Positions 29,931 to 62,769 of a stretch of 64,000 nt of DNA are shown piece after piece. The notes below the pieces were generated by a model. It was given only the letters and a program-made list of their open reading frames with translations. It was not told where the DNA came from and did not search any database. Position numbers and translations under genes: made by a program. The stretch is from Laetmonice hystrix (taxonomy: Eukaryota): NCBI GenBank assembly GCA_965235115.1, contig OZ249436.1, positions 19,408,001 to 19,472,000 of the forward strand, given 5' to 3'. Numbering within the stretch: position 1 is the stretch's first letter; every line of letters starts with the position of its first letter.

Positions 29931-32900
29931 CCAGGTTTAGGGGTACGGGTCTGGGTAGGGGTAGGTTGGATTTAATGTCGTTTCCCATAGTCCTGGCTTA
30001 GAAAATACAACATAGTTTCTAGGCCTAGACCTACTCCGATACGATGGACTGGGACTTTGGTTTGATTTCGTAACCACCCTCTCCGTCCCCGTAACCCGAT
30101 AGAGATATGATAATCCCAAAGATGAGCTGGTTACATTGGATAATCCACCAGCGAACAGATCTGTGTTGACGTGCTCAGTTTAGTAAGACATGTCAATATC
30201 ACCAGCTATGAGATCAACCACTCCGTCACTCATCATTATGTCATCTCAACATCCGCCGGTAGTTGGAGTATCCCATAATCCATACATTGTGACGTCATAA
30301 TCCACACATTGTCTGACGTTATAATAATCGCAGGTCAATGTTGTGTGTATCGCAATTATGGATTGCCCCATGTATAGGCATATTTCTTGGGAGTTATATA
30401 TTCAGATAGTTAATCATATTGAATACAATATACACTGTAATGTAGGCCTATATTAGGCACTATAATGTAGCCATAATTATTATAATATCTAATTTTATGT
30501 AGGCCTAGATTTATACGCGTTGCAAGGATAGGCCTGCGTGCATGGAGGGCTTCCACATAGGCCTACATGTTTAAATGTGCACCTATTACACATAGTGCCT
30601 ATTGACCACAACCCACACAAATATATACACACAACTGTAGCAGGGTCTATGCTCATGTACCTTTGTGGCTCGCCCGCCATGGATGTCGACGTGTGTACAC
30701 ACACTTAGCTGATCGCTCATACACATATAACAAGATCCTCGCTACTGTTTCCAAACAAAGTGCCCACCTGACAATGATAATCAAACACCAACGTTTTTAA
30801 CCAGCCCCTAAAAACATCTCCACCGACTGAGAGGGTGCAGACCGGCCTGGCAGCGACCCCTACCGGCCTTCTGTTTGTCCGGGCCTGCCGTAATGTCTAA
30901 GACGGTTTTTGGGGACTCATATTGAAAGTATTGTCATCGCTCACCCCTCGCTCTCTGCCCGTGTCGATTAACAAAGGATCAAGGGTTTGATCTATGCTGA
31001 GGTCTGCGGGACAAACAACTGTGGCCATTCTCACTCAGGTCACACATGTCGGCCACAAACGTCGGCAATCCTGCCAGATCTACGCCGATCGTCGTGAGAG
31101 GGCGCTGTGAGCGGGGCAGGGTTACCATCCGGGTCTCGCGCGGCCAGATAATGACCCTTCAGATACCAGTTAAAGGCGTGAGAAAAAAATGGCGCCAACC
31201 AGAAGCTTGCCAGACGCTGGCGCCATGTGTGTGCTGTTCATGACGGAGCTATAGGAATGGGACGCTTGTAGAACAGGAGGACTGCTCCCACGCTAACAGC
31301 CATCACGGGGGGGGGGGGGGGGGTACCTAGAAACATAATGTGTGGGTATGTGTGACAGGTTTGCTCAGACAAAAGTGCGGTAATATGAAAAACATATGAA
31401 ACAGGGCCAAAAAACGGCCACGTTTGTGATTTCTGATAATAAAATAAAAAGACAGAACACCTTTGTTGCCATCCGATGATAAAAAAAAGTTTCCCGTGTT
31501 CTGAAGAAACAACACTTTATTACGCGTGGGTGTTCTAGCTGGGAAATGTAAAGTTACATCTATATTTTACTATGTCTTGATGTGCCGAGATAAGTCGCTA
31601 TTAGACGGTCCACTGCTCACAGTCAGGGTGAGACAGGAGAAGCTGATGTCTATACAAGTCGAGAGTTGTACTGGCCTGTGTCCGTGGTGGTGGTGGTGGT
31701 GGTGGGGGGGGGGGGGGGGGCATTTATACTGTAATACGATCGTCTTTAAGTTATGGAAGCTACCATTGAGGTAGCAGGGCCCGTGCCCCCTGACACCCCC
31801 GGAGGTCGGTGCTCATTCTCCCCCCGACCAGCACCTTGACATGTCCGCCGGCCTTGAGGGCACCTTGTCCAGGGCTCAGGTAGCCCGCTCAACGCTCTCA
31901 TTATGGTAATGTAATCGAGGTGTTAGTCAGCAAATCTCAGGTGGGTATCGCTCAGGTAAATAAACGTCGCTGATCGTCACTTGATGCGGCACTGATCCCA
32001 GGGCTTGTATCCGCGGACCGAGCACTTAATCTGAGAAAATCTTCCCCGGAAATATTGACCCCCCGACCTGGTCATCACCAGGGGGCGCTCTGCGATGTAC
32101 CCAGGACAAACACCTATTAACACCCGTGGGGATTTTAACGAAGAAAGGGACAAATATCATTGACTGATAGAACAACATATTAATGCTGATCCAGGAGGGG
32201 TTAGTTTAGAGGGGCCGTCTCATGAATTATGTATTGGCATACATTGCAGGCGGGAAGGGCCTGGCCCACTGACTGTGACTATTGTGGACGCGGCCCCCCA
32301 CCCAGCATATATAATAACAGTAGCGTGCGCAATGTCTGACGACGCATCGCGGGAGTTTCTTAGGGTTGAGGTGGTATCATCCTTTGGGTCAATACGATGG
32401 ACACCTGCAGGTGTGAAAGTTCGTACCTTGATCTATGGGAATGCGACCTTGGAGGGGTTTAAAGGGCACCCGGTGTGAGGAAGGGGGGAACCTGGCGGAC
32501 GCGAGGGGAACTTCAAGTAACAATTTGCATATCTTCCTTTACAGCACCTGCCGAGTGTTGGGAGGGCGAGGACTCACTTGGCTAGGGTCATTATTAACTA
32601 GCTCACAAGGGTTGCCGGATGTTTCACGTAAAATGGTTGCGCAAAATATTATTGTCAAATAATGCTCCTTTGGTGTGTTTTTACTCTTGGTGAGGGACTC
32701 AACTTGGACACTGAGACAGTGAATTATTTGAGACTTGACTTCCAACTCTCTGTTTTGAGATTGTCAGTGTTATCTTAGTACATCGATGGGGACAGGTATA
32801 ATGTGTAGAAGTAGTGCTCGTTTACTTGTTGCCAATTTTAAAATGAAACATACCAGTTAAATAGAAACTATATCGAGCAATGTTAACAAGAGGTGCATGA

Positions 32901-32939
32901 TGTTTTGTACCGCTGTCTTACCGTTGTTTTTGTGCCGAT

Positions 32940-33574
32940 GTCTTAGTTTGGAACCCTTGTCTTACCGTAGTTTGGAACCCTTGTCTTACCATAGTTTGGA
33001 ACCCTTGTCTTACCGTAGTTTGGAACCCTTGTCTTACCGTAGTTTGGAACCCTTGTCTTACCGTAGTTTGGAACCCTTGTCTTACCATAGTTTGGAACCC
33101 TTGTCTTACCGTAGTTTGGAACCCTTGTCTTACCGTAGTTTGGAACCCTTGTCTTACCGTAGTTTGGAACCCTTGACTTACCGTAGTTTGGAACCCTTGA
33201 CTTACCGTAGTTTTGAACCGCTGTCCTACCGTAGTTTGGACCCCTTGTCTTACCGTAGTTTGGTACCCTTGACTTACCGTAGTTTGGAACCCTTGACTTA
33301 CCGTAGTTTTGAACCGCTGTCCTACCGTAGTTTGGAACCCTTGTCTTACCGTAGTTTGGAACCCTTGACTTACCGTAGTTTGGAACCCTTGACTTACCGT
33401 AGTTTTGAACCGCTGTCTTACCGTAGTTTGGACCCCTTATCTTACCGTAGTTTGGACCCCTTGTCTTACCGTAGTTTGGTACCGCTGTCCTACCGTAGTT
33501 TGGACCCCTTGTCTTACCGTAGTTTGGTACCCTTGCATTACCGCAGTTTTGAACCCTTGTTTTACCGTAGTTTA
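32940..33574. repeat. 24-bp minisatellite (TTTGGAACCCTTGTCTTACCGTAG), ~26 copies, ending just upstream of the Dmbx exon 2 acceptor
   Basis: Direct reading; explains the SLEPLSYR ORF. Confidence 0.95.
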
Positions 33575-33596
33575 TAGGCCTACGGCTGTGTTTCAG

Positions 33597-33772
33597 ACAT
33601 TATTCTGGAGGCGCGCTACGGGGCCCACCGGAAGCAGCGGCGGTCACGGACAGCGTTTACCAATCAGCAGCTGGCAGCGCTCGAGAAGACCTTCGCCAAG
33701 ACGCACTACCCGGATGTAGTGATGAGAGAGAGGTTGGCAATGATGACCAACCTCCCGGAGGCCAGAATCCAG
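33597..33772 (+). CDS. DMBX1: Dmbx coding exon 2: [59 protein letters not shown] (homeodomain 1-46)
   Basis: TTTCAG| acceptor; phase 1 joins exon 1 (G|AC=D); CAG|GTACGC donor at the canonical PRD-class Q46/V47 intron position. This frame is not shown in the ORF track. Confidence 0.96.
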
Positions 33773-33802
33773 GTACGCATCCACGCTCTCTTCTGGATGT
33801 TT

Positions 33803-33913
33803 TCAGTACTTGCTGCAATGTCGCTATTTTTTACCCGGGTATTCCAGTTTGCCCCGCCAGTAAAGCTGACCTCTTGAATATGATCTGGTTCTTGTTGTGG
33901 CGTATAAACCCCA
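33803..33913 (+). mobile_element. Degenerate 3' half of a V-domain-type SINE inside the Dmbx homeobox intron
   Basis: CCGGGTATTCCAGTTTGCCCCGCCAGTAAAGCTGACC...GTGGCGTATAAACC resembles, from memory, the CCGGGTACTCCGGTTTCCTCCACCAATAAAACTGACC...GTGGCGTTAAAC tail of mollusc SINEs. Not checked against a library. Confidence 0.45.
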
Positions 33914-34076
33914 AGGTCAAATCATTGTAACTGACTGATAGGTGTCATCAAAATACTGTCCGTAGACAGTAATGTTTGCTACAGGGCCACGCCAAAAAAC
34001 TGACCTACTGATAATCCCTGTTATTTGTTTGTTGCTGTATGTTACTGTTGATACATTGATTTATGTTTTATTGTAG

Positions 34077-34365
34077 GTATGGTTCAAAAACCGTCGTGCA
34101 AAGTTCCGAAAGAAGCAGCGTGCTCTCAAGGTCAAGGTCAAGGACACAAAGGTCAAGGACGTTAAAGACGACGAGAAAGAGGCTGCGGACGGTCACGAGT
34201 CGGCTGCCAACGACGACCCGACCGACGACGACTGCGGGTGTCAGATTGACGTCGACGATGACGTCACGTCAGTGAGCGGTGAGGGTGGAGGTGAAGAGGT
34301 CAAGGACACGACGTCCGACTGGGAGGGGACTGGCGGACAGGGTGGCAACGCTGATGACGTCACAG
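34077..34365 (+). CDS. DMBX1: Dmbx coding exon 3: VWFKNRRAKFRKKQR (K50 helix 3) plus acidic linker
   Basis: TTGTAG| acceptor; WFKNRRAKFRK; open to ACAG|GTATGT donor, phase 1. Confidence 0.94.
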
Positions 34366-35455
34366 GTATGTGCATGTTCCCGTCGCCGGTTAACGTCTTT
34401 AGGGCCTGAATACTGGGGGATTGTTTCACAAACAACGAGAGGTGGTCCGACGAACCAATAATAGGCCTACTAGGCCCTACAACCAGGCCATAGACACCCA
34501 GAGACGATGCGTGTCCGGTTGGAGTGTTTGAATCGGCCCCCAGACTTCAACCAATTCACTTCACACTAGTGCAACCATGATGTTGTGACTGAGATCAGAA
34601 GACAATGTAGTACTAAACAAAAAACATTGCCCTGTCCTTTTCATGGGGTTATTTTCATTATTATAATCCCAGGCCCGTACGACACTTTTCAAAAAGGGGG
34701 GTGGCATGACTTGGAATTAATTCGCGCAAACGTGGCAGTGCACGTTTTGCGGCGTGTGCCCAATGATACACGTGTGTTTGCAACCCTCGTAACCCTCGTC
34801 AAATGGGGTAGGAGCAATCTCTCGCTTTGAGAAGTTCTCCCCCTTTTTCTCCCATTTCGAGTTCTTCGATTGACCTCAAAAGTAGTGAGAATGAGAGGAA
34901 AAGTGTGCTAAATGGCGTCAAAATTAATGGCGGAGGAGCAATCTCTCGCTTTGGGAAGTCTTCCCTCTTTATCGCCCATTTCGAGTTCACCATGCATGCA
35001 TTGTTTTTGGGATGTACATGTCCTCACAAAATGCTATTAAGTCTGTACCATCTATATTCTTACCATTATGACCTGCTTATATCATATCTAATGTCATATA
35101 GGGGCATACATAGAAATCGAGGTAAATCTGACAGAAACGGGGTGTGTGACCGCGCCATATCCTATATTATTAACACTGGTTCAGCATGAGAGGAGAGAGG
35201 TTGTTTTTCAATATTCGGAATGAGGAGCATAGGTAATTATGAAACATTTCGTGACTGTAGGGCTACCATTGAAGCATTATCTCCACCAACGACTGCGGTA
35301 GAGATTAGTTAGCGTCAGCCCCAGCTCATCCCATGATTGCTCCAGATTTCTGTTGATCCCAAACTTTACATTCCTGCATAGACGTAGGGGATTACATTAT
35401 AGCCCAGGTGATGACGAACCCCCTTTTTTGACGACCTGATGTTTTGTTTTGACAG

Positions 35456-35650
35456 GACCAGCCGACCGGCTTGGTGGCCATGATGACACGTGCTGCCCAG
35501 CGGCAGGCGATGACGGAGGTTACCGGCAGCCGGGGCCTACTCCCCGGCCTCCCAGTCGGTCCCCGAGCCGGTGTACGGACCCCGGTCCTGCCTCCCCGCT
35601 ACACCGAGACAGCAAGGATGTCCTGGCCGACTTCCCGGCCCAGTTCTCAG
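35456..35650 (+). CDS. DMBX1: Dmbx coding exon 4 (Pro/Ser-rich linker, GPADRLGG...DFPAQFS)
   Basis: GTTTTGTTTTGACAG| acceptor and CAG|GTGAGA donor; 195 nt, phase 1-1, open frame compatible with flanking exons. No homology evidence. Confidence 0.75.
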
Positions 35651-35680
35651 GTGAGATATACCGGGTGCAGCCACTGAGAT

Positions 35681-35775
35681 ACACTACAAACACGTAACAG
35701 GATAAAGGTCCTTCATGGCGCATGAATACGGCACGATACCGAAGGTGGAGTGCCGTATTGATGCACCAGGCATCG
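35681..35775. mobile_element. Truncated relative of the 1406-1622 MITE, inside Dmbx intron 4
   Basis: AAACACGTAACAGGATAAAGGTCCTTCA resembles the TIR; TGGCGCATGAATACGGCACGATACCGAAGGTG resembles the reverse complement of the element interior. Confidence 0.55.
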
Positions 35776-36236
35776 AGTTACATTATACTTTCCTGTCGCG
35801 AAGGAGCCGGATCCCGTTAGGTGTTATTATGTGCCTGGATTATTTCTAATTTAAGGAAAACGAACAACATTTAACAAGACTTCCAGATCCTCTGAGGGCC
35901 TAATTTATAATATGGCCCAAAACGTGTATAATAAAGGTCTCCGCTCTTGGTGCGTAATTTATAATAGACCTTCCATTGGGCCACATAGTTAACGTTGCGT
36001 CAACTCGAAACGTGTATCTCAGTCGTATAGAACACGCATTCCATACCAATCACCATAATGGCACCCCCTGAATGACACTGGCAGATTAAGGCGCATATAA
36101 TAAAAATGTATTAGTCATGTACGGCCTATACAGTTTCCTCATATTTATATACAGTGTACTAGTAGCCCATACAAGAAGCAATTGTACATATTTTATTGGG
36201 CTATACAATGCATGTTCAAGTCGTATTCCTCTTCAG

Positions 36237-36730
36237 TTTCAGAGGGACTCGGTTCCAGTTTGGATTCCAAGGCCCATCTAATGTCGTTTGCTGGGTTTCC
36301 GTCACCGTCCCTAAGTTCGTCTCTAAGTCTGCTCCAGTTCCAACACCAGCTCCAGCAGCAAGCCACCTCCGTCGGACCGCCCGTCTTCCAGCGTCAAAAC
36401 CTCTCCATGCCGTATTCCGCTCAGTCCCACTTCCAGCGTCCCGTCTTCCCGGCGAACAGCTCACTTCCGTCCCTGTCGGCGGCTGCGCCCTCCTCCTGGT
36501 CACCCTACTTCCTGTTTGCACGCGGCCCGCAACCATTTATCTCAATGGCCGATACGCATGCGTCGACCGGACTTCCGTCTACGTCACGCAGTATGAGTGG
36601 AAACATGACGTCAGGCACGTTTGGAGTCAGTAACCATGGTAACCACAAGGACAACATGTTAAACAGCAGCATCGAGAGTCTGAGGATCCGCGCTCGGCAA
36701 CACTCGGCCTCGCTCGGCTACTACGAGTGA
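36237..36730 (+). CDS. DMBX1: Dmbx terminal coding exon with OAR domain (NSSIESLRIRARQHSASLG)
   Basis: CTCTTCAG| acceptor (alternative in-frame AG 6 nt downstream), phase 1; OAR motif; TGA at 36728-36730. Summed exons are 1359 nt = 452 aa + stop. Confidence 0.9.
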
Positions 36731-37227: not shown

Positions 37228-37233
37228 AATAAA
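37228..37233 (+). terminator. Probable Dmbx polyadenylation signal AATAAA
   Basis: AATAAA in AT-rich context ~500 nt after the Dmbx stop codon. Confidence 0.5.
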
Positions 37234-38388
37234 ATATAAATATTACCTGTACATAAAATGTTACTAGTTATGGTTTGAGATGTCTCCTTGATGGACGAGA
37301 GTCTACCTTAGATAACTGAAGAAATGAAGGAAGGTCGAGAGACATGGAGGACACATTCTGTCAGTGGTCAAGTCATCCGATTTTACCTTAAACATTCCTT
37401 TCCCCTTTACTAGCTAACTGTTATCCTAATTAAGAATGAAACTATCTCCTGTGTTACTGTAAGTCTGGTATTTGGAACATTCGGGAACCCTCGGGAAAGT
37501 CCGCCACCTTCCGGTGGGTTCGGATTTTCACCTCGGGTGTAATGGACAGATTTGTGTGACTTTGTGATGCGGCGCGAATGAATATGAGTAAGCAGGCAGG
37601 GGGCACAATGCGCGCTGACCAAGTAATCCCTACAGCGTAATGGCAGTGGTTGATGAGTGTTTGCATTATGCACTTGAAAACTGTCCGATAACCAAAGGAA
37701 AGTCGCGGCAGTTAAACCAAAACAGAGAGAAACATGCTCAACTCGGAAATGGCTTATGCCTCCATTCGTCCCATCATCGGCCACCAACACTCTGACTCCC
37801 CGGCGCAGCTACCGACAGCGGCGAGACAGCGGCGACACGGGCCGCCGCTGCTACTGCTAGCGCGAAGCGCTCGGAAACTGGTGAGGCAGTCTAGGCGAGA
37901 TACAAATTAAGGAGGACGTTATTTCACATCACTCTGATCACCGTCCCTTCCGTGAACACCCACTAGAATTTTTTTTATAGCGACAAAGGCCAAGATGGGA
38001 GCTGTGGAAAGCACATGGGTTTGTTTAGTTGTGTGACTACTTTCAAAAATGGCGACCTGACCTTTACGGCCGAGACATGATCTGCCATCTGTCGAGGTAG
38101 CGCCAAGTGATTTGGAACTGGCCGGTGACAGTTTCAGTGCTGCCATCTAGCGGATCTTTCTCAACATTGGTTAAAATGACAGACGGTAGGTGCCAGCACT
38201 GTACAGGACCTATTGATTGAATGCGGGTGGGCAGGGGTTTCATTGAACGGGATGAAGAGAAACAAGTCTGACAAGAGAAAAATTGGAATCTGGGGAACTC
38301 TCTTCTAGAGTTTTGCGTTTTCTTAATATGAACAAAAATAATTATAGCCATGTTTATGGTAATAATCAATGTCAACGAAGATGACGAC

Positions 38389-39205
38389 TAAAGCCGGCCA
38401 CACACCAGAGAAACTGGGTCATCCGACCCGACCGGACTGGACAGTTTCCCCCGGTGTTTGCGCGCCTACGACCCGACGAGACGGTTTTTGCCAGTCGGCG
38501 ACGGCCAGTTTTTCAGATTAAACATGTTGAATATGAAAGACTGCGACTCCCGACTCCCGACTCGGTGTGTGTTGACAGTCGGCAGTCTTTAGTCGGCTGA
38601 GAGGCAAAAGCCAATCAGTGCTCCGCAAAGTACCATGTGGTGATTCGTGTCATGTGATCCATATAGGCCTAGTGTCCATACGGACATGGAGAGGCATGGA
38701 AGAAAGTAGCAGCAGAGTTTGAGGAAAAGTGGAATTTTCCTCATTGTGTTGGAGCACTGGATGGCAAGCACATGCATCAGACTCAAACCACCAACAAATT
38801 TCGGGTCCATTTTCCATAATTATAAACTAAATTATATTATTGAAGGACTATTTCAACTCAACAGCCGGGGCAGTATCATGGCAGGATAGCATGATTTGTT
38901 CAAGTGCCACTCATTTCACCTGGATGGATTTGATCAATTTTCGATCCTGTACGACCTACTCGAAGTTGCGCAATCCCAAACTGCTTACTTTGGTGGTTTG
39001 AGCAAAGTTCCACATGTCGCGCTGTAGTTGCATGCTTAGTATGGAAAATTTCCGGGTGGGGCGCATCCATCGCATCAACGACTGTCAGTCGGAAGTCGGC
39101 TCGGTGTGTGCGGGGGGCACACACCTAGTCTTAGCGCCATAAAACTGGTCCCGACTGGTCAGTCTCTGCGACTGACCCAGTTTCCTTGGTGTCTGGCCGG
39201 CTTTA
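38389..39205. mobile_element. Internally deleted non-autonomous PIF/Harbinger DNA transposon
   Basis: ~33-bp TIRs TAAAGCCGGCCACACACCAGAGAAACTGGGTCA / TGACCCAGTTTCCTTGGTGTCTGGCCGGCTTTA, plus an internal transposase remnant. Confidence 0.85.
38691..38826 (+). pseudogene. Harbinger/HARBI1-type DDE transposase fragment, frameshifted
   Basis: Translates [27 protein letters not shown], then a 4-nt insertion, then [17 protein letters not shown]. This is the conserved FP-C-GA-DG-H...NYK block around the first catalytic Asp. Confidence 0.88.
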
Positions 39206-40879
39206 TCAAACTGCGGCCAATGAGTGGCATTCTAACAGAGTATAAGAATTAAAACATAGAACCTTTTGAAAATGTCCAAATTCGTTTTTTTAGAATGTGT
39301 TTTCCCGATTAGGGAAACCAACGGCTAAACCAAATCTTCCGAAAAGTTTACGCGATCCAAATTGGTTTCTGAACCCTCATCAATGTTCTCATTGGGGGAA
39401 TTCAGGTTCAGATTTCACTACAGACGAATAGGACCCCCGCCCCCCTCCCCAACGGGCCGAGGTCCATTTTTTCGATCAAAGAAGTAGGGGTCTATAGACC
39501 TAGATCTATATGCCTACAGCAATTTTCTTGTCAGTTGTCTGTTGAGTGCAAACCCGCCTTCAATGGAAAGCCTGGTTGTAGGCCTCAGTCTATGCCTAAT
39601 AGATAAATTGGACAGAGCCTAGTATCGATCAAATGCCCAAATAAACTTTCCTTTATTCAGGGCATGCATAGATCTATAGGGCCTATATTATGCCCTAGCC
39701 TAATATGTTTCACATTCCGCTTCAGCTCACTGACCGGTAGCCTACGCTAGCCTAAACTAAAGACCCTATTCCCGCTATAAATTCATAAATGCACAGTTTT
39801 AGGCCTAAATTGAGAATCTAGGGGGTGCTGGTTGATAGTCGCCAGGTGAATGCCACGGTTTATCAATTTAGGCCACACGAATTATCAGTTCATTAGGTTT
39901 ATCAGTGTATCACCACAAACATCCAGCTACAAGCACCAATCTTCCGAGATTTCCCCCCTTAAGTTTGGAATCAATAAGATCTCTGCTTCCTCCGTCAAGT
40001 GATCCAGGCACGGAGGGGGAGCCGTCTACCCGACAGATGGCAGCACACGTACTTTAGTTAGTTCATCGTCTCACAGATGGCGCTCGAGGAAGAGGGTTCA
40101 TTTCATGAGCCGATTAAGTTGGACACCTCGCAGTTATATTATCTAATTTATATATTATAATATATATTATATTATATAATTATGTTATTTAGTATTTATT
40201 CGTAAAATGTGGTATAATACAGTTTGGATGTCAGAGGAAAATAAATTAAATAAAATCACGTTCAGAGCCGACGACATCACCGTGGTGATCGTGGCGCCAT
40301 CTGGCGTATTCCCAGGCCATGCTCCTCGTCTGGATGTGATGTGGTTACCATGGTAATATTCCCACGGTCTCGTGAAGATGTTACCATGGATACCTATATG
40401 TTTTGGAGATTTACTTATTACGTCATTACACCAATGTATTCGACCTTGGTTTTCATTACTGGTGGACAATCGATCACCTGAAAAACAGAAATCGGGAAAT
40501 CGGCAAGTTCTAGGGCTTACTACTTTCTGTTGATTCCGTGGTCCTACTGTTGGACATTTAGAGGGATAAGTCAGGCATACGTAGCTAACCCTATTTCTGA
40601 ATCCAATTTCAATTTGGAATAATAGATAATTTCCTATTTATTAGAGAGCAATGGGACTATTTGGAGTGACGGCCCTCGGCTTGGATCAAACTTGATTGCT
40701 TTCATCGCACACATACTGACAATACAAACTAGTATGGCTAGTAACCGTTACGTGTATCCCTCAGACTGACCCCGGTCATAGAGGATAGCTGGTATGTATG
40801 GCATGTAGTCAATCTGACCTCGGTCATAGAGGATAGCTGGTATGTATGGCATGTAGTCAATCTACTCACCATGTGTCAT

Positions 40880-42288: not shown

Positions 42289-42481
42289 TAAACATTCCTA
42301 TCTTAGGTCAATCATATTGGCGACCACCTACTTCAAATCGGAATGGCATGGTGCTGTCTGTTTAACGTGTCAGTTCTGTTGTTAGCTATCCCCGGTCTAT
42401 GATGGGATCGGATCTCAATCTAGACATGAGTCGACGCTGATCCATCCAATCACGGTACGACCAAATCCCTGGTCATCAAGC

Positions 42482-47137: not shown

Positions 47138-47686
47138 ATAAAGGGCCATCATAGGCCTACTACACTGGACCTTAGAGACTAGCAATAAAGAATGCATAAG
47201 GAGCCTATTCAAAGGCATCCTGGTATCCACCCATAAAACTGTTAATTTCAATAGGAAGCTAATTTCACCAGTATACGAATACCAAGAATCCTGTACCGGT
47301 ACTTCTTATTTTCTATTACCACGGCCAACCATACCCGTACAACGCCCAAACCGGCCGGCCGGGCGGACCAGTAAAAACCGACTATAGTACCTTCAGACTA
47401 TCCTACAGCCTGCTGCCCGCTGCAGACACCGCCAACGCTGCCGCTCTGCTCACCGTTTTTCTTGCAGGCGCAGGGGACGGCTCGGCTGCTGCTGCTTCTG
47501 CTGCTGCTCCTGCTGCTATAGCGTCACTCCAGGCGGGCGTATCGAGGAAGTGCATACTGATGGCACGACGCTAGCCGTCGGGGTGCGAGTCTTTCATTGA
47601 CAGAATCTCGACACCCTGACAACGTCAAGCTGTGATTGTGCCCATCTAGTAGTTCCACACGACCGCTGGCTCAGACAGCAGTCAGC

Positions 47687-49186
47687 ATGGCCTCTCCGAG
47701 GATCACCAAGGCGACAGGCTGTGTCAGACTTAAGGGAACCAATCGACTCCTCGTCTGCGCTGGCCTCCTCATATTCACGTGCTATTTTATGTCCGAGTTA
47801 GCGTTGAGGTCGTGGACTCTGGATGATTCGTACCACGGTCAGGCACCGCTCTGTGGCGGTCAACATGACGGATCGCTACGATTCCAGGCCATGCCATGTG
47901 CTCCAGTACGAGTTACCCCCAGGAGTTATGAACTGCCACCTGGAAGAGAACTGACCGCTCAGCCCACCGAGGACGCCAGCTGGAATGAATCGCAGTTCGT
48001 CTCGTGGATGGCGCCCTCTGAGATTGGAGTTGACAGAGCCGCCGTGCAGGCTCGTGCCCGGCCCGGAAACCCTCATCACCCTCGGGGTCGGCAGGTGACC
48101 GGCGGAGGTCTACAGGTGGAGCGACCACCACCCCTCGGCCGGGCCTTTCATAGACCCCACAACAAGGGGCGGCCGGAGGGGGCAGGTCACGGGGTCAAAG
48201 CCCTGGAGGGCACGCCCAGTAAACACCAGGGGGAAGGTGTTACACGACCACCATCCTCCAGCAAGCGGCCTGGAGTGCAGGGGGCCCTAGAGAGGCGGTT
48301 TTACAGCCGTAGATTTACCAGGGTAAATCCGCACGACTTCACGGTGGTGTACAACGCCAGCGGGGTCTGTGCCCAGCCACCCTACCTCATCATTATCATC
48401 CCATCACTGCCCAGCGCACGGGACAGGAGGAACGCCATCCGGGACACCTGGGGCGGCGTCTCCAACTCCTCCAGGTGGCTAGACATCGAGCTCAGTTACA
48501 AGGTCAAGGTCGCCTTCCTCCTGGGTCGGACCGAATCGGAGCGGTTGAGGTACGCCTTACAGGAGGAATACGCCCAGTTTGGGGACATCGTACAGGAGGA
48601 TTTCCTCGAGTCGTATAGGAACCTGAGTCTGAAAACGGTGATGGGTCTGAAGTGGGTGGTAAAGTTTTGTAGCGGTGCGCAGTACGTGATGAAATGTGAC
48701 GATGATATGATCGCTCACATCCCGATGATCGTTGACCTCCTGACCCGGAACAGCTACCGGCGGTCGGTGGTGGGGCATGTTAACAGGGGCGCCGTGGTAC
48801 AGCGCCAGGGGTTGTGGCGTCTGTCGCACGGCGAGTTTCCATTCCACTACTTCCCGCCATACGCCTCGGGTAGTGCCTACATCCTGTCGGCGGACGTGGT
48901 GGGGGCTCTGTACACAACCTCCGAGTATATCCCACTCATACCCATCGAGGATGTCTACGTCACAGGCGTCTTGGGTAAAATGGTAGGGGTCAACCTGGTG
49001 CACGAAGACGGCTTTACGTCATGGAACGCCTTCTCGCCCAGGACATGCGATCTCGCCCTCGGCAGAATCTACACTGGAACTAAAATGACGTCAAATTCTC
49101 TCCGCCGGATGTGGCGGAGGTTGCGCAGCGGTGGTTTAAAATGTAACCGTGACGCGCACCAGCTCGCCATGCGCAGTCAGTACTGA
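47687..49186 (+). CDS. Beta-1,3-galactosyltransferase-like glycosyltransferase (CAZy GT31), type II membrane protein, 499 aa, single coding exon
   Basis: First in-frame ATG at 47687. N-terminal TM LLVCAGLLIFTCYFM, long stem, then GT31 motifs RNAIRDTWG, EDFLESYRNLSLKT, KCDDD (DxD), FPPYASGSAY, IEDVYVTG. An upstream acceptor TTTTTCTTGCAG| at 47467 implies a 5' UTR intron. Confidence 0.93.
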   Translation: MASPRITKATGCVRLKGTNRLLVCAGLLIFTCYFMSELALRSWTLDDSYHGQAPLCGGQHDGSLRFQAMPCAPVRVTPRSYELPPGRELTAQPTEDASWNESQFVSWMAPSEIGVDRAAVQARARPGNPHHPRGRQVTGGGLQVERPPPLGRAFHRPHNKGRPEGAGHGVKALEGTPSKHQGEGVTRPPSSSKRPGVQGALERRFYSRRFTRVNPHDFTVVYNASGVCAQPPYLIIIIPSLPSARDRRNAIRDTWGGVSNSSRWLDIELSYKVKVAFLLGRTESERLRYALQEEYAQFGDIVQEDFLESYRNLSLKTVMGLKWVVKFCSGAQYVMKCDDDMIAHIPMIVDLLTRNSYRRSVVGHVNRGAVVQRQGLWRLSHGEFPFHYFPPYASGSAYILSADVVGALYTTSEYIPLIPIEDVYVTGVLGKMVGVNLVHEDGFTSWNAFSPRTCDLALGRIYTGTKMTSNSLRRMWRRLRSGGLKCNRDAHQLAMRSQY

Positions 49187-50031
49187 ACGTTATACGTGGG
49201 ACAGTGAAGGTCACACTTTGGTCACTGAAAGTCACACTTTGGTCACTGAAGGTCACACTTCGGTCACTGAAGGTCGCACATCAGCCATTCAGAAACGGGA
49301 CCAGAATTATATAGGCCTACTGCTATATTATATTATAGGCTGTAACATGTGATAGTCTGTGGAAACTATTCGTCATGTAAATTAAGTACGCAAATTTATG
49401 AAAATTATGTACATTTATGCATTTTATATACATGTGTCGTACATTGAGTTTCCAATGATAACACAATCAAGGACACTGTTATACTATAGTATTGAATTTG
49501 TAAAAAGGCAAGGATTGTGCATATCATGTTTGTGGAATGTCAAACAGCAAGAAAGTCGTTTAGCTTACACACGGCCTGGTAATTAATCATTATTTTCTGA
49601 CAGTAAAAACTGGCGTATACACAAATATTGGTAGTGACAGTGTTGTCGACATAATGATATCGTTTATCTCAAGAGTTCACACCCTGAATTTACATCCAGA
49701 CATTCGCTATCAGGTTATATTTAGGTCAGAACTGTATTGACCACGAAACGAGGGCCGTTCAAGGTCTAGTGATGGTTGGAGGGGGGGGGGCGTTGTTACC
49801 CTGACCGGGGGCAGGGTACTAAACGGGTTGTCGCGTACCGGGGGGGGGGGGTCGGAACTAGGGGGCAGTAATTTGTAAATAATTGGCCCTGCAATTAAAT
49901 GTTCCTGCACTGACCTAAAAAAATCAATGGTGACACCGTGTACTGTTATTATCATATTAACGTTATTAAGGTTATCATTCTGATTGTATTATTGTTATAA
50001 TCACTGGGAGAGTTATACTTATATTTAAATA

Positions 50032-50357
50032 TACCGGGTGGGCATAAATAAAACTTGTCGAAGTGTGACGTTCAATAATTCAAAAACCCTATGTCACAAG
50101 CTTCTGAAAGATTACAGGAGTAACCACCTCGATGTCTGTTAATATCTGGTGCAATTTTCTTGTTTTTTCTTGCACAGGTAGTCAATTGGACACACTATTA
50201 ATTTTGGTATCATGTAATGACTATTTGTGAGATCAACTTAAAATGGTAACAATATCAAGGTGTTTGCTCTGTAACTTCTCAGAAACTTGTGACATAGGGC
50301 TATTGAAATATTTAACGTCAAAGTTCGACAAGTTATTTTCATGCCCATATCCTAGTA
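50032..50357. mobile_element. Foldback MITE with ~110-bp imperfect inverted arms (Tc1/mariner-like end TA-CCGGGTG)
   Basis: GGGCATAAATAAAACTTGTCGAAGTGTGACGTT...CCCTATGTCACAAGCTTCTGA is mirrored by TCAGAAACTTGTGACATAGGG...AACGTCAAAGTTCGACAAGTTATTTTCATGCCC. Confidence 0.7.
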
Positions 50358-51705
50358 GGCCTACGTATTAATCAGCCGGGTTTGTCGCTTCCTCTCCATG
50401 ATAACATATCGGTTTCTATATCAACTCATCCCGTATGCCATCCCAGCTAACAACGGTTCACATTTGTTTGTTTCTCTATGTAAACAAAATACCGGTATCC
50501 CCTACTTACCTGTCCTATTAGCAGTCCAGAAAGCCCTATAATACTGAATGGGTCGGAGAGCAATGGATGGAACAGCCATGGGACCGTCTGAAATACTGAC
50601 GTAACAGCTCAGCATGTCCAAAATGTGACGGATACACCAACAGCTGTTCTGTTAACGGTCGTTACCCCTGACCAATGTAGTACCTTTTCGGACTCTGGAC
50701 AGGTAAGTGAGGGATTAAAGTACTTTTGTAACTTTTTATTCTGGTTCGGTGGGAAAAGGAACGTTGTATGGCCGGGACAAATCAATGAACATATCGTCAG
50801 TCATAGTAACCTGCTATTACTCACTGTGTGATAGGGTAAGATGTAGATCGACCTCCAGGGGTAATGGAGTATACCCCACAGTCCTGACCTGAGCCCAAAC
50901 CTGTCCGCTGACCGGTTAGATGAACCCAGTGTGAACGGTCTGAGGGGTTAAACATGATGACGGCGAGTTATTACATGTATGAGATTTATTTTGAAGGAAT
51001 GTCGTTCATTATTTCCATTCAGGGACGTGAGAAGTGAGCGGAGCGAGCAGGACTTGTCCCATTCATTTAAACACGATTAGGAAGGTTAATCCTACAGGGA
51101 GGATGTCAATAATCAAAATGTCAATGTCCACTGTGTTAGGGTTAATAATATGTACCATTTGGTCCCGCCCACGTTACACAAGATTCCCAGACCCGTGCCG
51201 ATTATTTTAACTTTACTTGTAATAAATCTAGATACAGTACATAGTCGTGACATAGACTATTAAAATTACATATATGTCGGTATAATAGAAGGATGGACCT
51301 CAGCTGGACAATACATCCGATAATCGAGAGCCAATATTGTGCTTAGACCCCCGCGCAATGTTCAATTACTCACAGATCCCCACTTTTCACCGTACGGCAG
51401 GCATGTGGCGCCCCCTGTTGAGGCTTTTAGAACTCATCTGTGTGAGGCCATCTTGGGTGCCCGTCGGACAAACCGACATTATGTTTCGAAATCAATAACA
51501 GTTCATATTGCCAAAAGGTCTTTCCTTTGCCCGATTGCAAAATATTGCCCATAGTTTTAGGGTATCTGACCAAATCCATTAAATTATATACGGTTTCAGA
51601 AACATTGGAAATAGACGGGAAGATGCAGGGACGTGTGTCAACTATGGTGCGACATTAGTAAGAGTTACGGGGGGGGGGGGGGCGAGGAAGATTTGGCATC
51701 GGGCG

Positions 51706-57490: not shown

Positions 57491-58441
57491 AGCCGTCGAT
57501 TTCATTCCAACAGAACATTCCTCATGGACAGTATCAACCACTGAAGCTATCACAACCTAATAACCAGGCCATGGTAGCTGCCTACAATTTATACGATACT
57601 CTAAACGTGCTGACATTTATTATTACATGAAGTGACTCCAACCTTTGGAAATAAATATGATCTTCTTGTAGCTTATTATAGACACCGGTTGAGTGAGCGA
57701 AATCTAGAGTCTAGTTCTCGGAACCTAGTCCCTATATCCTAATCCCACATTGGACATAAAATGCTGAGGTTGAGTAGACGTCGAGTATAGGAGGGGCGGT
57801 GCCCCTCATTCTGTCATTCATTTAATTACATGTATGTACATAATGCACGATATATTGATACACCCGTCCATGATTCGTAGTTAGGGTCCGACAGGAGAAC
57901 TCTTCATTGACATCAACGACGACAGAATTAAACCAAGACGTCTTTTCTCTTTTTAAAGATAGTATGATGCTTTCACTTTGTAAAACAGGTAGGCCCTACC
58001 CATGACCGGTATCAGCAGAGTTAACTTAAAAGTAAGTACTCCAGTCTCTGCCGTCGTCCGTATAAGTACAGAAAACTGGGGCTGGTATCTGGCGCCCCCT
58101 GGCGGGGTATTTGTTAACCTGGTGCAGAGACTGAAGGTCATTTGATGGTGATTATTTGGTCTGTCTGGACTAAACCCATGATAACTGTGTGAATATTGGC
58201 GTCGTCATGACTGGGCCTTGATGGACCCTGATGTAGGATGGCCGGTGGTGCCCCCTAGGGGGCCAGGCCACAGTCTACCTACCAGTAGGGATAAAGTATG
58301 GTTGTTTGCGGTATCCACTGCCTGTACGTGCACCTTAGTAGGGCAAGGTGAAGTTTATACACTCGCATTCTCTCAGGTATGCATAGATACACTAAATACC
58401 TAAACAAGTACACAATGCTAACAGCTCTTAGACCTCCCAAA

Positions 58442-58785
58442 GCCTGGCCCCCACCGCCACAGTGGGGTCGAGGGGGCCTGGCCCCCACCCCCCACAGTGG
58501 GGTCGAGGGGGCCTGGCCCCCACCCCCACAGTGGGGTCGAGGGGGCCTGGCCCCCACCCCCCACAGTGGGGTCGAGGGGGCCTGGCCCCCACCCCCCACA
58601 GTGGGGTCGAGGGGGCCTGGCCCCCACCCCCACAGTGGGGTCGAGGGGGCCCCCACCCCCCACAGTGGGGTCGAGGGGGCCTGGCCCCCACCGCCCACAG
58701 TGGGGTCGAGGGGGGCTGGCCCCCACCCCCACAGTGGGGTCTAGGGGTCTGACCCACCCCCCATCAGTGGGGCCATGGGGGCTGG
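58442..58785. repeat. ~34-35-bp GC-rich self-complementary minisatellite (GGCCCCCACCCCCCACAGTGGGGTCGAGGGGGCCT)
   Basis: Direct reading. Confidence 0.92.
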
Positions 58786-59873
58786 CATAATTCGTATTGC
58801 CTCGCGATATTGCTCATGGAAAAACCTGATCCGAATTTCTGTGAGACCTCAGTAAGGCCCAAAATAAATACTTTACCACCATTGCATGAATACTATAACC
58901 GTTCACATCAGCCGAACTCCACATCACCGCGGCTCCTTATGTCACAACCATAATATACATCATCATAATCTACGATTTGAGCCTGTCGATTGCGTGCTGT
59001 CAATAACTCTAGAATCTTTCATTTTTTCCGGCCCATAATACACTACGTGACTTGGGGATAATTATAGTCCGACTCTCGGTAAATAGTCTCATCTAAATCA
59101 TCTCACCTACTGGAAGCTGTGAGTCTAGCTGAAATCACTTCTCCTAAGGTTCTCTTTATAACACATTTACCATTACACATGCAAGTAAAAAAAGCCACTA
59201 AACTTCTCCTATACAGATTTCATTATTGATCATATCGTATCGAAGTATCACTAGGTCTAATTTCACATGAGCGTCTCTAAGAGATTCTGGTGTCCTCTCA
59301 GTTCTATACCTCCTCCTCAGTATGTAATGATGACGCCCTTTCCGACTAACACTTCAACCCGTTCAAACGTCAGCCAGGACTTCCGATTTTTACACCATTT
59401 GTACCTAATACCATGTTTCCCAGTAGATGGCGCAACTGTTGAATTTTGACCCTTTTATGAAGAGTGCAGCAAATTATGTTCACGATATCATGCATAACCA
59501 GGCAAGTTCACCGATGTTTAAATGAATGCCAATCTGACCCGGGATCTGTGAACGCACCACCTAAGTGTGTTTCCATGGTAACTGAGACGAGATTTACAGT
59601 TGGTTCGTGGTATAGTCTGTTCGTGGTAGGCTAAGTAACCTGGCCCTCTCAGCAACGTCATAATTCTGTGTAGAACTCAAACCATCGTGCTTGTATCATT
59701 ATGATCCTACCTTTGATACGACTCCTGTGTAGTCATCTGTGACTGGTTGATATAACCACTGCCTAACCCAATCAAACCGGAACATTGCCTGGTTGCTGAC
59801 GTCCCACCCCCATACCGAGTGTGCCCATCCGTGACGAGCTTAGGGTCCCACAACCACATGGTCACGTAGACCG

Positions 59874-60545
59874 TTACAGGCCAGTGTTGTTGTATTCCGG
59901 AGGTTTGGGGGGAGGTTCCTCCACCACTGGAGATATCTCCAGGGCTTTGTTCTCCTGGCCCTGGCTGGGATCCAACAAGTCATCTTTGGAGAACTTGAGA
60001 GCCGGGTTTATCTGGCCGTTCGACTCGGCCTTCTTGGTGTTCAAAACAGTCATCTCACCCTCCTCACCGTTACCGCTGTGTTCTTTCAGAGCAATCACTT
60101 CGTCCGGTATGTTGACGACACACATGAAAATATCATAGTTCTTGGGGAGCACTCCGTTCTCAAAGATGTATTTGGTGCTGTAGGACGCGATGAGGATCAC
60201 GGAGAAACTGACGAGCATGCAGAGTGTTTTATACGGGAAGGTTTGAATGTCGTTTTCGTAATCGTAGCCGGGGTATTTGATGACTGATGGGAGGAAGATG
60301 AGCGGTTCTCCGCCGAGTAGACGGAAGAATAGGCCGAGAAGGTAGCCGGCCAGCGAGCCGTAAGTGTTGGTATCACGTAAATAGACCACAGATACCAGCT
60401 GAGGGAAGAGGATGACAAAGACAAGGTCGGCACACAGGTACCACAGGCCGTAGATGGTCGTTATGGTGATTCCCATTACCGTCGCTAGGGCACCCACGCC
60501 AAATATACCCACACGCATGACCCAGATTACTTCACGCTCGGAGGC
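59874..60545 (-). CDS. SLC5A7: High-affinity choline transporter, last coding exon ([18 protein letters not shown]...NNTGL*)
   Basis: Contains [37 protein letters not shown] and FPYKTLCML typical of CHT1; acceptor TCTTCCAG|GCC, phase 0. Confidence 0.95.
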
Positions 60546-61774
60546 CTGGAAGATTGAAACAGAACACGTGCTTATTATACATAGTTTTACTCAAAACAAC
60601 TACTGGCGCCTCTTCTTCTTACTTGGTCCAATTCTTAAGAGCTTAAGATCTTGGCTAATCTTAAGATGGAGCAAGATCCTAAGTTGAAGAACTTAATTGT
60701 TCCTGGAACCCCCTGTTCTGTGGCTTCTATTTTCAGAACAGTCGCTGTTTGTAAAACATGCCTCCATCGCCCTTCATCTCAAAAATAAGCCTTCTTGTCA
60801 AAACTGTTTGGGTTTAGGCCTACTGACACCTCTATATCCAGCAAGATTTCTTAACGGAGAAGACCAGTCAAAAATCACATTTGGACAGCTGCAAGGCCTC
60901 TATATATACTCACCTTTCAGAGTAGTGGTTGGAAATAAATGTCCCCCTATTCCAAGAAGTCATATATTGAACATGACAACCGTGTCAAAATCACTGGCTT
61001 CAGCAGCGCAGCCATTTGTTGCTATTGGGCTGACCGGAAGTGACGTTCCAGGGCTAATCTTTTGCATGCCAGGGCTAGGCTATACTAGGCTAAAGGCAGC
61101 CGAGGCGGGTGGCAAATCGACGGGGGTCAGTCCCACAGTCACAGTCACAGTCACAACTAAACGCAGCAGGTCTGTGCTGACTATGCTGACACTAGCTGCC
61201 ATTGCTCGCGGTCGTAGTCAGAGTGGCGCCGGGCCTCAGGGGCCAGAGCTCCCGTCAACATCCCACGCATGCACGAATCCAAGTGGGACGAATGCAGGCG
61301 GCCGAAACCCACGGCTGCCCAGATCCGTGTCCACCCTGATATGTCCCCTGACATCGGTAGGCTTTTCCTAGCCATTCCTCATCACTATCGATGGTTTTCG
61401 TCTATGTTCTAACAAATTTTGCTTATAAGCTGTCAACGTTCGCTGCCTTCCAAATCGATCAACGCAACAGGTGCGTCAGCTTTCAGTTCCTCCCAAACTG
61501 GAGAGCAGTCGTGCTGCGCATGCTCGCCTAGGGCGAGCATGCGCACTTTGAGATTAGCCCAAGGAATGGCGGCCTTCACCAGCTGAGCAGGTTGTAAGAA
61601 GCCTCCGGCCTATATCTTAACCATCTGAGCACCAATTGTGTTCAAATATTTTTTAACTTGCTTAGAATATCACGGCATGTGTGCCTGGCCTATACAGACT
61701 GGCGATGGTCTTTTCTTTTAACGTTCCCTATGTTTTAAGCGTGTATAAGAAGATCAAAGTTTTCTAATGCTCAC

Positions 61775-61989
61775 TTTTTGTCGGAAGATGAGTTTGTAGA
61801 CGTTGCGAGCGAACATGGAGCTGGCAGAGAGCACGGAGGAGTCAGCTGATGACATGACAGCCGCCGACACGGCTCCCAGTCCGATAAATGACACCCAGTT
61901 CGGACAGAGGTGCTGCATGACCATGGGTAGGATCAACTTCTGGTCTTCTGGAGGAATATCAGGCCGCCCCCACTCTGTCTGATTCCAAT
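61775..61989 (-). CDS. SLC5A7: High-affinity choline transporter internal exon (DWNQT...[36 protein letters not shown])
   Basis: Signature [10 protein letters not shown]; acceptor GTGACAG|, donor AAA|GTGAGC; phases 1-0 fit neighbours. Confidence 0.95.
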
Positions 61990-62240
61990 CTGTCACAACA
62001 CACAACATCCGCAGTTAGTAACAACATGCACACATTTCATTAATCTGGTAGAAATAAACAAATAATTATTAATAAGATATCTCACAGATTCTTAAGTCTT
62101 TTTGGGTTTTTTTCGTTGTTTTTTTTCTGTTTTTTTTTTTTTTTTTTTTTTTTTGGGGGGGGGGGGGGTTGTGGGTGGGGACATGCATGATGAAGGATTT
62201 CTATGTTCATGTTGCCGCTGTGTGGCGCTGTTGTACGTAC

Positions 62241-62370
62241 CTGCGTTCTTAGCGATAGCTCCGATGATTACTGCAGGGATAGCCATCACCACACAGCCGA
62301 AGGCTGCGATATATGAGAGGAGCTGGGCTCTCAGTGCCGACTTGGACGACAACACACGCTGGAAGTATAC
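62241..62370 (-). CDS. SLC5A7: High-affinity choline transporter internal exon ([11 protein letters not shown]...IGAIAKNA)
   Basis: YFQRVLSS motif; acceptor GTTTCAG|, donor CAG|GTACGT; 130 nt, phase 0-1. Confidence 0.95.
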
Positions 62371-62769
62371 CTGAAACACCACCAGGGGGCAGGCCAATCG
62401 GCATCAGTCACGTCTTTATACAAACAGCGCGGCTTGGGCCTACAGGGGTGTCAGAAAAAGGGGCAGGGCAAGGGGGTATGCCTGCCACAAATATTTGAGG
62501 TGCCCCCAATTAACTAGGTATTTTAAGACACTTTTTAAACCTCTTGAAGTAGGCCCCTAAAACACTTATCTTCAGTCGTACTCTGCTTCATATTTTTGGT
62601 GAATTGTTCTAACAGATTACCCACATTTTCTAATATGGTGGTCCCATAATCTGCTACTGGCTGGTGAGGGATGTGGTGTGGGTGTGGGGTGAGGGGGTGG
62701 GTGTGAGGTTGAGGGTTGGGGTGAGGGGGTGGGGGTGGGGTGAGGCGGTGAGGGTTGGGGTGAGGGTCT

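Follow-up and report, generated by a model that had tools for sequence, protein, structure and literature searches.

Introduction

Does the direction of CTCF-type motifs divide a lophotrochozoan locus into domains, in the manner of the divergent, clustered CTCF sites at vertebrate TAD boundaries? The question is raised by a 64,000-nucleotide stretch of Laetmonice hystrix DNA (hereafter, the window) that encodes Dmbx, a GT31 and SLC5A7, and in which a sequence-only reading had listed eleven close matches to a CTCF consensus and had taken their order to partition the three genes. CTCF orthologues have been reported from annelids and molluscs (PMC10658182), and reviews describe the data on spiralian CTCF orientation as fragmentary (PMC10658181; PMC10658182); PMC9977687 makes no mention of CTCF. 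A literature search covering mainly open-access papers and the main text of preprints turned up no study whose subject was CTCF orientation across the genome of an annelid or a mollusc.

Results

Genes of the locus

The gene names given earlier, and the assignment to a lophotrochozoan animal, probably an annelid, are borne out by Pfam matches and by the identity of the Dmbx protein. Exon 2 of Dmbx (33597..33772, plus strand), which holds the first part of the homeodomain (PF00046), is 97–100% identical to named lophotrochozoan Dmbx proteins. It lies between coding exon 1 (26456..26660, plus), whose ATG and GT donor could be read, and exons 3 (34077..34365, plus) and 4 (36237..36730, plus), the last with the OAR motif (PF03826) and the stop codon; the four-exon frame is open over 385–387 amino acids. 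Exon 4 has a second in-frame acceptor at 36243. The GT31 galactosyltransferase is a single-exon open reading frame on the plus strand (47636..49186; PF01762) with its first ATG at 47687, and the 3′ exons of SLC5A7, the high-affinity choline transporter, occupy 59874..63238 on the minus strand, the gene extending past them. An Rfam scan of 49–63 kb returned no matches. In a search for related loci, 81 stretches fit the patterns and three were confirmed as SLC5A7 relatives; these can be aligned in exons only and are too distant to bear on motif conservation, and their 17.8 kb contain four matrix matches at p<1e-4 against 3.5 expected.

CTCF-type motifs exceed chance expectation

All eleven listed sequences are present at the positions and on the strands reported, but only four fit the consensus exactly. 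One mismatch separates four others from it, two mismatches a further two, and 40070 departs at more than two positions. Motifs were counted with that same consensus and with working versions of the vertebrate and fly CTCF matrices, neither taken from a database, the matrix scans covering 41 kb of non-tandem DNA. A minisatellite at 8342–11357 was left out of all matrix and core counts; it holds 20 core-only matches, all on the minus strand and below 2 bits.

By each of these measures the motif count lies far above shuffled background. The consensus has four exact matches against 0.14 expected and 15 matches at one mismatch against 4.1, numbers reached in none of 100 shuffles. With the vertebrate matrix there are 28, 12 and 3 matches at p<1e-4, 1e-5 and 1e-6, where nine shuffle schemes gave means of 9.8–14.7, 0.9–1.9 and 0.05–0.22; none of 540 shuffles at any threshold, and none of 1000 column-permuted matrices, reached the observed count. 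The fly matrix gave 20, 9 and 4 matches against 9.2, 1.0 and 0.11 expected at these thresholds, the 10-nucleotide 3′ core 18 against 2.1–3.3, and AGGGGGC-type sites, which are dispersed, number nine against 0.7. GC content and G-runs were ruled out as the cause by local k-mer shuffles, and permutations that keep G-blocks reached the observed count once in 1000 at 1e-4 and never in 1000 at stricter thresholds. The CpG and GC-rich context of the sites, viewed without a formal test, falls mostly inside the background range, and hairpins at 32075, 58247 and 37499 are unremarkable (z about −1.5).

Several sites also share a 3′ AC extension adjoining the core. Among the 18 unselected core sites, AC occupies positions +2/+3 past the core in seven (P=6e-5) and C occupies +3, which lies outside both matrices, in ten (P=0.003); in the core matches omitted by the sequence-only reading, the AC extension occurs in one of seven, which is no enrichment. 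Invertebrate CTCF motifs are described in a preprint as having a weaker 5′ part and a 3′-terminal C (10.64898/2026.10.19.759930), and the +3 C in the window may be that nucleotide. The several-fold motif excess makes it likely that CTCF would bind at this locus.

Distribution of the sites

The first 32 kb had been thought to contain only weak matches. This asymmetry holds for the 10-nucleotide 3′ core alone, with 3 matches on the left and 15 on the right (P=0.016), but not for the vertebrate matrix (5 vs 7 at p<1e-5, P=0.78; 11 vs 17 at p<1e-4, P=0.57) or for the consensus at one mismatch (5 vs 10, P=0.44). Five left-hand sites outscore five of the listed ones with the vertebrate matrix: 15566..15584 (plus, p=4.6e-6), which was absent from the list; 16023..16041 (plus, p=4.1e-6), which had been called weak; 25973..25991 (minus, p=9.3e-6), about 470 nucleotides upstream of the Dmbx ATG and divergent with an intron 1 site of Dmbx at 27022..27040 (plus, p=6.7e-6, found by the vertebrate matrix only); and, in the same intron, 30851..30869 (minus, p=2.0e-6). 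The last is divergent with 32072..32090 (plus; listed as 32075), another intron 1 site and the top vertebrate-matrix match (p=2.5e-7). A further unlisted site lies at 23142..23160 (minus; vertebrate 1.4e-5, fly 2.6e-6).

Toward SLC5A7 there are minus-strand sites at 51406..51424 (listed as 51407; vertebrate 2.6e-5, fly 2.0e-6), 58090..58108 (58091; strong with both matrices) and 58246..58264 (58247; p=4.9e-6), the last with a palindromic core that scores 6.8 bits on the opposite strand. The plus-strand site at 59417..59435 (59420), also strong with both matrices, lies about 440 nucleotides past the SLC5A7 stop and is likely inside the 3′ UTR; the first minus-strand poly(A) hexamer is at 57821. 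The site at 62376..62394 (62379; plus, p=6.4e-7) covers the stretch from −6 to −24 at an SLC5A7 splice acceptor, where the minus strand carries the pyrimidine tract. The motifs thus far described and those below are spread over the first intron of Dmbx, the 3′ end of SLC5A7 and the DNA between genes. Among the 12 strong sites, Dmbx intron 1 holds three and an SLC5A7 intron one.

The remaining sites lie 3′ of Dmbx. Two were not listed, 37499..37517 (minus, p=6.7e-6, partly palindromic) and 37590..37608 (plus, p=4.9e-5), the latter convergent with 38080..38098 (minus; listed as 38082), a weak match (p=1.6e-3) of AGATGGC type with the E-box CAGATG. Of the same type are 38138..38156 (38137; minus, p=5.5e-6) and 40027..40045 (40030; plus, p=1.7e-5), the latter again with an E-box. 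The site at 40067..40085 (40070; plus) is weak with the vertebrate matrix (5.8e-4) and strong with the fly matrix (8.4e-7), and 40292..40310 (40293; minus) is the top fly-matrix site of the window (5e-8). At p<1e-4, 38082 and 40070 are missed by the vertebrate matrix, and 38082, 38137 and 40030 by the fly matrix.

Orientation of the sites

In the sequence-only reading, divergent pairs at 38–40 kb and 58–59.5 kb would halt cohesin loop extrusion and so isolate Dmbx, GT31 and SLC5A7, a proposal that we regard as very improbable. The 58091(−)/59420(+) pair, divergent and strong with both matrices, does speak for it, as does the twofold occurrence of the order −−++ among the listed sites (P=0.039), but that P value belongs to the hand-picked set only; it is 0.25–0.87 in unselected sets, and the pattern arises because the sites were picked by eye from a longer mixed series. 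In unselected sets the order of orientations is at chance level and shifts with the matrix used, and a check against random order (9–28 sites, low power) revealed divergent arrangements without excess, the best unselected P being 0.057. Even the listed set has two divergent adjacencies against 2.5 expected and five runs against six (P=0.38). The site at 40293, which had been treated as an exception, scores highest of all with the fly matrix and points toward 40070 in a convergent pair; with the unlisted 37499(−) and 37590(+) it turns the first cluster into one of mixed orientation.

The value of 0.057 comes from the 12 strongest vertebrate-matrix matches (p<1e-5), whose close pairs are divergent in three cases and convergent in none, a weak hint that leans toward the vertebrate pattern. 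However, two of these three pairs lie on or inside Dmbx, one straddling exon 1 and one within intron 1, both as strong as the pairs originally singled out; the three do not include the pair at 38/40 kb. With the fly matrix, moreover, the order is +−−++−−−+, with 40070/40293 convergent. Convergent pairs are not spaced more widely than divergent ones as a rule, the ratio of their distances being 2.0 in the listed set (P=0.40), 0.55 in the core set and 0.17–0.32 in the fly-matrix sets, although such a metric is meant for whole genomes and the window falls far short of that scale. The divergent pairs originally proposed are 1.2–1.9 kb apart; according to PMC7422557, the orientation bias of human sites is non-significant below a 4-kb window. 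No pattern is detectable in the motif directions, and vertebrate-style domain boundaries find no support here, nor does orientation-dependent insulation of the Dmbx domain from its neighbours, given the chance-level order, the pairs inside Dmbx, the short spacing and published invertebrate data, which suggest no rule of orientation. A dozen sites are too few for a test of genome-wide grammar, and a weak genome-wide bias is compatible with them.

The cluster 3′ of Dmbx

Five of the six AGATGGC-type sites fall within 2.5 kb at 38.1–40.3 kb, 1.35–3.6 kb past the Dmbx stop (P=0.0008, post hoc, for one of eight patterns tried). Clustering of the general motif sets is non-significant (P=0.07 or more), and significance is confined to this post hoc subtype. 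From its sequence the cluster may be an insulator or enhancer that works independently of orientation. If any element of the locus insulates Dmbx locally from GT31, this one is the likeliest, and it would do so by how many sites it has, whatever way they point.

The cluster could instead be a 3′ neural enhancer of Dmbx in which CAGATG E-boxes overlap the CTCF core by accident, an explanation that we consider unlikely. We take CAGATG to be preferred by proneural bHLH factors of the NeuroD/Atonal type, and it is present in four of the five clustered sites, although the fifth, 38137, has TAGATG and thus no E-box. All four occurrences of CAGATGGC and all three of ACAGATGG in the window are inside the cluster (P=0.001 and 0.009, both post hoc). 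The 5′ parts of the clustered sites fit the vertebrate CTCF matrix poorly, but A is frequent at that 5′ position in the fly matrix, and every clustered site carries the CTCF 3′ part GGC(A/G)(C/G), for which an E-box has no need. Furthermore, the nine dispersed AGGGGGC-type sites are left unexplained by an E-box enhancer.

Repeats and transposon relics

It is also worth considering that the motifs may have been carried in by several old DNA transposons or dispersed repeats and be largely unbound or neutral, with the divergence at 38–40 kb due to a single decayed element and its inverted ends; we find this doubtful, if somewhat less so than the enhancer. Tandem repeat makes up 36% of the window, and a Harbinger/PIF-like transposon, likely internally deleted, with 33-nucleotide terminal inverted repeats (38389..39205), lies between the 38082 and 40030 sites and hence between the two site pairs, yet it contains none of the listed sites. 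Within it there is a DDE transposase relic near 38676–38816; the element has an Atlas lead to DDE_Tnp_4 on 15–19% of cluster members and no Pfam match. The best inverted match between both zones joins 38082–38100 and 40026–40043 over 18 of 19 nucleotides and scores 31, against a mean of 22 and a maximum of 32 in 300 shuffles, but its ungapped length of 15 nucleotides equals the best of one among five control zones. A transposon bounded by this match (38082/40043) was rejected, there being no target-site duplication and no excess over controls; an old decayed element is compatible with these results.

The sites are not copies of one repeat inside the window: none of 210 site pairs share 40-nucleotide flanks above the 99th percentile of the null, and with flanks unrelated among all 21 sites a single dispersed repeat is ruled out as the motif source within the window. 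Single sites could sit in different dispersed repeats, each present once in the window. Against the passenger view, a motif kept among unrelated flanks is the trace expected from selection on binding.

Discussion

The best explanation, which we hold to be reasonably probable from the motifs themselves, is that about a dozen enriched CTCF-type sites of mixed orientation are ordinary sites of the host CTCF, used in an invertebrate, orientation-independent mode. The host species would then have a CTCF whose zinc fingers bind these cores, and binding would keep local chromatin open or block enhancers locally, as in flies; it would not halt cohesin by polarity.

It is informative to examine this explanation in light of other systems. 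Drosophila CTCF sites, which are orientation-independent, resemble those in the window in their AGATGGCGC-type cores and relaxed 5′ part, consistent with the nine fly-matrix matches at p<1e-5 where 1.0 was expected, but fly insulators rely on insect-specific partners. In the lophotrochozoan Dimorphilus gyrociliatus, PMC7854359 describes abundant CTCF motifs in open chromatin, neighbours having no clear directional arrangement, much as in the window; those motifs are ATAC-supported, mostly single and promoter-based in a compact genome, while ours are predicted, mostly intronic or intergenic, and include one five-site cluster. Similarly, echinoderm TAD-like boundaries are enriched for CTCF motifs that are unoriented (PMC13317027), and thus share motif enrichment without an orientation pattern; they are defined by Hi-C, unlike the window sites, and echinoderm CTCF has lost zinc fingers. 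The window has in common with vertebrate boundaries the core motif, local clusters and some adjacent divergent pairs, and differs from them in showing no orientation bias, in its uninformatively short spacing and in having pairs inside genes. Insulation does not strictly depend on divergence even in the mouse (PMC7422557; PMC9279147).

Squid (Euprymna) and amphioxus TAD boundaries are invertebrate cases for which CTCF with loop extrusion has been proposed (PMC9023564; PMC10013865). For squid, the former reports enrichment of a CTCF-like motif at TAD boundaries, which favors cohesin-halting pairs in the window, as do the retention of the YxF cohesin-binding motif in most surveyed taxa and the fact that annelids and molluscs are unnamed in the main text of two 2026 preprints that assign loop-barrier function to the chordate or vertebrate line. 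For amphioxus, just over 52% of pairs are convergent (PMC10013865), and a later preprint obtains neutral values; protostome CTCF spacing and loop metrics are near neutral there too (10.64898/2026.10.19.760054). Against such pairs stand the pair spacing and motif order described above, the undirected Dimorphilus motifs, and an implied GT31 loop of 11–18 kb where invertebrate domains are roughly 200 kb (PMC13317027). In addition, CTCF of fly, sea urchin and sea squirt is unable to form TADs in mouse cells. KTYQR, a vertebrate N-terminal addition to CTCF, is reported as confined to jawed vertebrates. We give very little credence to a large, repeat-rich lophotrochozoan genome with polarity-dependent CTCF barriers to cohesin, of which the dense motifs around Dmbx, and the three divergent but no convergent close pairs of the strongest vertebrate-matrix matches, would be the trace in sequence; such a loop-extrusion grammar would be either ancestral or independently evolved outside chordates.

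As it stands, the finding is an ordinary one, CTCF motifs in a bilaterian, and an annelid and echinoderms are already known to have undirected motifs; the window leaves the spiralian orientation question unanswered. Nonetheless, the motif stands out clearly enough in Laetmonice hystrix DNA that its orientation could be tested cheaply across the whole genome, and one concrete candidate element is at hand in the cluster of five sites 3′ of Dmbx.

The Dmbx–SLC5A7 locus

The window is animal DNA with a GC content of 49.7%, and tandem repeats account for 22,961 of its 64,000 bases. Within the non-tandem DNA, both strands counted, the E-box CAGATG is rarer than expected (11 versus 22.8) and CAGCTG commoner (30 versus 18); the commonest 8-mers of this fraction include TAGGCCTA and ATGACGTC. 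Dmbx occupies four coding exons on the plus strand (26456–36730), with an open frame of 385–387 amino acids containing a homeodomain and an OAR motif, the two lengths corresponding to in-frame exon 4 acceptors 6 nt apart (36237, giving 387, and 36243, giving 385). Its exon 2 is 97–100% identical to named lophotrochozoan Dmbx proteins. A single-exon GT31 gene (47636–49186, plus strand) is followed on its 3′ side by a MITE-like element of ~310 nt (50039–50347) with 79-nt inverted arms (84%), and SLC5A7, which is transcribed from the minus strand, has its 3′ exons in the window as far as 59874. The best named matches of SLC5A7 are to annelids (Lamellibrachia, Capitella), then to a nemertean and molluscs; judged by these gene matches, the source animal is a lophotrochozoan and probably an annelid.

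SLC5A7 has some local peculiarities. The 3′ end and splice donor of one exon recur in ~3 tandem copies (62663–63101, period ~124 nt), which may be alternative donors or intronic relics, and a 74/152-nt tandem repeat (63180–63933) overlaps the other end of the same exon. The last intron holds a 31-nt near-perfect palindrome containing TGCGCATGC (61515–61545).

CTCF-type motifs exceed chance

All eleven CTCF-like sequences listed by the sequence-only reading are present at their positions. Their description as close matches to CC(A/G)(C/G)(C/T)AG(A/G)(G/T)GGC(A/G) holds for the four that are exact; four others carry one mismatch, two carry two, and the site at 40070 carries more than two. Across the window, this consensus has 4 exact matches (0.14 expected) and 15 with one mismatch (4.1 expected), each count being reached in 0 of 100 shuffles. 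Vertebrate and fly CTCF matrices give the same picture. In the 41 kb outside tandem repeats, the vertebrate matrix has 28, 12 and 3 matches at p<1e-4, 1e-5 and 1e-6, where nine shuffle schemes (60 shuffles each, preserving 2- to 4-mers locally or globally) predict 9.8–14.7, 0.9–1.9 and 0.05–0.22 and never reach the observed counts (0/540). Column-permuted matrices likewise fail to do so (0/1000), and with the G-block preserved a single one in 1000 succeeds, at the loosest threshold only. The fly matrix has 20, 9 and 4 matches against 9.2, 1.0 and 0.11 expected. Furthermore, beyond the searched 10-nt 3′ core, AC stands at +2/+3 in 7 of the 18 core matches taken without selection (P=6e-5), in 6 of the eleven listed sites, and in 1 of the 7 core matches that had been passed over.

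The 40-base flanks of 21 sites are unrelated in all 210 pairs, and a recurring motif within unrelated flanks is the pattern of independent protein-binding sites; we infer that these CTCF-type motifs are bound by protein. The same flanks, compared within the window, argue against the motifs being neutral passengers of repeats, which we consider unlikely. Two sites in the cluster discussed below form an 18/19-nt inverted match to each other, as repeat-borne copies might, but no target-site duplication accompanies it, and one of five control zones yields an ungapped match just as long (15 nt).

The listed sites are a selective description. Only weak matches had been noted in the first 32 kb, yet five of the 12 vertebrate-matrix matches at p<1e-5 fall in the left half, outscoring 38082, 40030, 40070, 40293 and 51407, and the division of 5 versus 7 shows no significant asymmetry (P=0.78). 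The 10-nt core alone is the only measure favoring the right half (3 versus 15, P=0.016), and this is probably what had been noticed.

Several repeats touch on these motifs or on Dmbx. A minisatellite (8342–11357; 34-nt unit, ~86 copies) holds 20 core matches, all on the minus strand and without the CTCF 5′ part (under 2 bits); they do not enter the matrix and core totals given above. Weaker CTCF-type sites at 25084–25116 and 49838–49870 have in common an upstream G-run and TCGG directly 5′ of the core, and are possibly remains of one repeat family. Dispersed short repeats link the window start to Dmbx intron 3 (1355–1622 with 35716–35882, inverted; 1078–1137 with 36058–36111).

Orientation is at chance level

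The order of site orientations is that expected by chance. The listed string, +--++----++, has two divergent adjacencies (2.5 expected) and five runs (6 expected), and its two --++ blocks have P=0.039 in the hand-picked set and P=0.25–0.87 in unselected sets. The string also varies with the matrix, being ++-+-+----++ for the vertebrate matrix at 1e-5 and +--++---+ for the fly matrix, which loses 38082, 38137 and 40030. The minus-strand site at 40293, set aside earlier as an exception, is the strongest fly-matrix site in the window and is convergent with 40070(+). Ratios of convergent to divergent distances come to 2.0 in the listed set (P=0.40), 0.55 in the core set and 0.17–0.32 in the fly-matrix sets. 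With 9–28 sites these tests have little power, and their outcome is an absence of support rather than proof of absence. The proposed orientation-based partition of Dmbx, GT31 and SLC5A7 rests on an order that is matrix-dependent and at chance level.

One hint points the other way: among the 12 strong vertebrate-matrix matches, close pairs are divergent in three cases and convergent in none (P=0.057), as boundaries formed by vertebrate-style extrusion might be. However, two of these pairs lie on or in Dmbx itself (25973/27022 across exon 1; 30851/32072 in intron 1), the third is 58246/59417, and the pair at 38/40 kb is missing; we regard such boundaries as very improbable here.

Individual sites also sit within gene features. 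The site at 32075 is within Dmbx intron 1, and that at 62379 overlaps a splice acceptor of SLC5A7 (positions -6 to -24), its C-run doubling as the pyrimidine tract. Those at 58091, 58247 (which has a palindromic core) and 59420 fall past the stop codon of SLC5A7 but short of the first poly(A) hexamer (57821), and so probably lie in the predicted 3′ UTR.

A cluster at 38.08–40.30 kb

General motif sets show no clustering in the window (P of 0.07 or more). YAGATGGCRS has five of its six window sites inside 38.08–40.30 kb (P=0.0008, post hoc, as one of 8 patterns), in the orientation - - + + -, and the nine YAGGGGGCRS sites are dispersed. Between the pairs at 38.1 and 40.0 kb lies an 817-nt transposon-like element (38389–39205) with 33-nt inverted ends and a broken DDE-transposase-like relic near 38676–38816; it is likely an internally deleted Harbinger/PIF-type transposon, although a Pfam search of it returned zero matches. 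Once it is removed, the pairs stand ~1.1 kb apart. The E-box CAGATG occurs in four of the five clustered sites, which is consistent with a bHLH E-box enhancer, an explanation to which we give little credence. This cluster is the only locus-specific feature deserving experiment. The reading we favor, with moderate confidence, is that these are CTCF sites of the ordinary kind, working as in other invertebrates, and that the cluster may act as an insulator independent of orientation.

Comparison with known systems

In the annelid Dimorphilus gyrociliatus, CTCF motifs are reported to be abundant in open chromatin, with neighboring motifs following no clear directional rule (PMC7854359). Echinoderm boundaries are reported to be enriched for CTCF motifs without orientation (PMC13317027); the motif excess here is also unoriented, being read from sequence where theirs is at boundaries. 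Squid boundaries are described as bearing a CTCF-like motif (PMC9023564; PMC13652810), convergent pairs in amphioxus are given as just over 52% (PMC10013865), and spacing and loop metrics in protostomes are reported as neutral (October 2026 preprint 10.64898/2026.10.19.760054). Fly, urchin and sea squirt CTCF were reportedly unable to build TADs in mouse cells (October 2026 preprint 10.64898/2026.10.19.759930). Even in mammals, human orientation bias is reported as non-significant in windows below 4 kb (PMC7422557), and divergence as not strictly required for insulation in mouse (PMC9279147). The main text of neither preprint names annelids or molluscs, so the question of a vertebrate grammar appears still open for spiralians (PMC10658181, PMC10658182); the prior runs against it. 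Overall, the original observation is partly confirmed and its interpretation partly supported, with support for CTCF-type sites and none for an orientation-based partition. These candidate sites would bind CTCF as those of other invertebrates do, their direction irrelevant, and the 38.08–40.30 kb cluster might insulate whatever the orientation of its sites.
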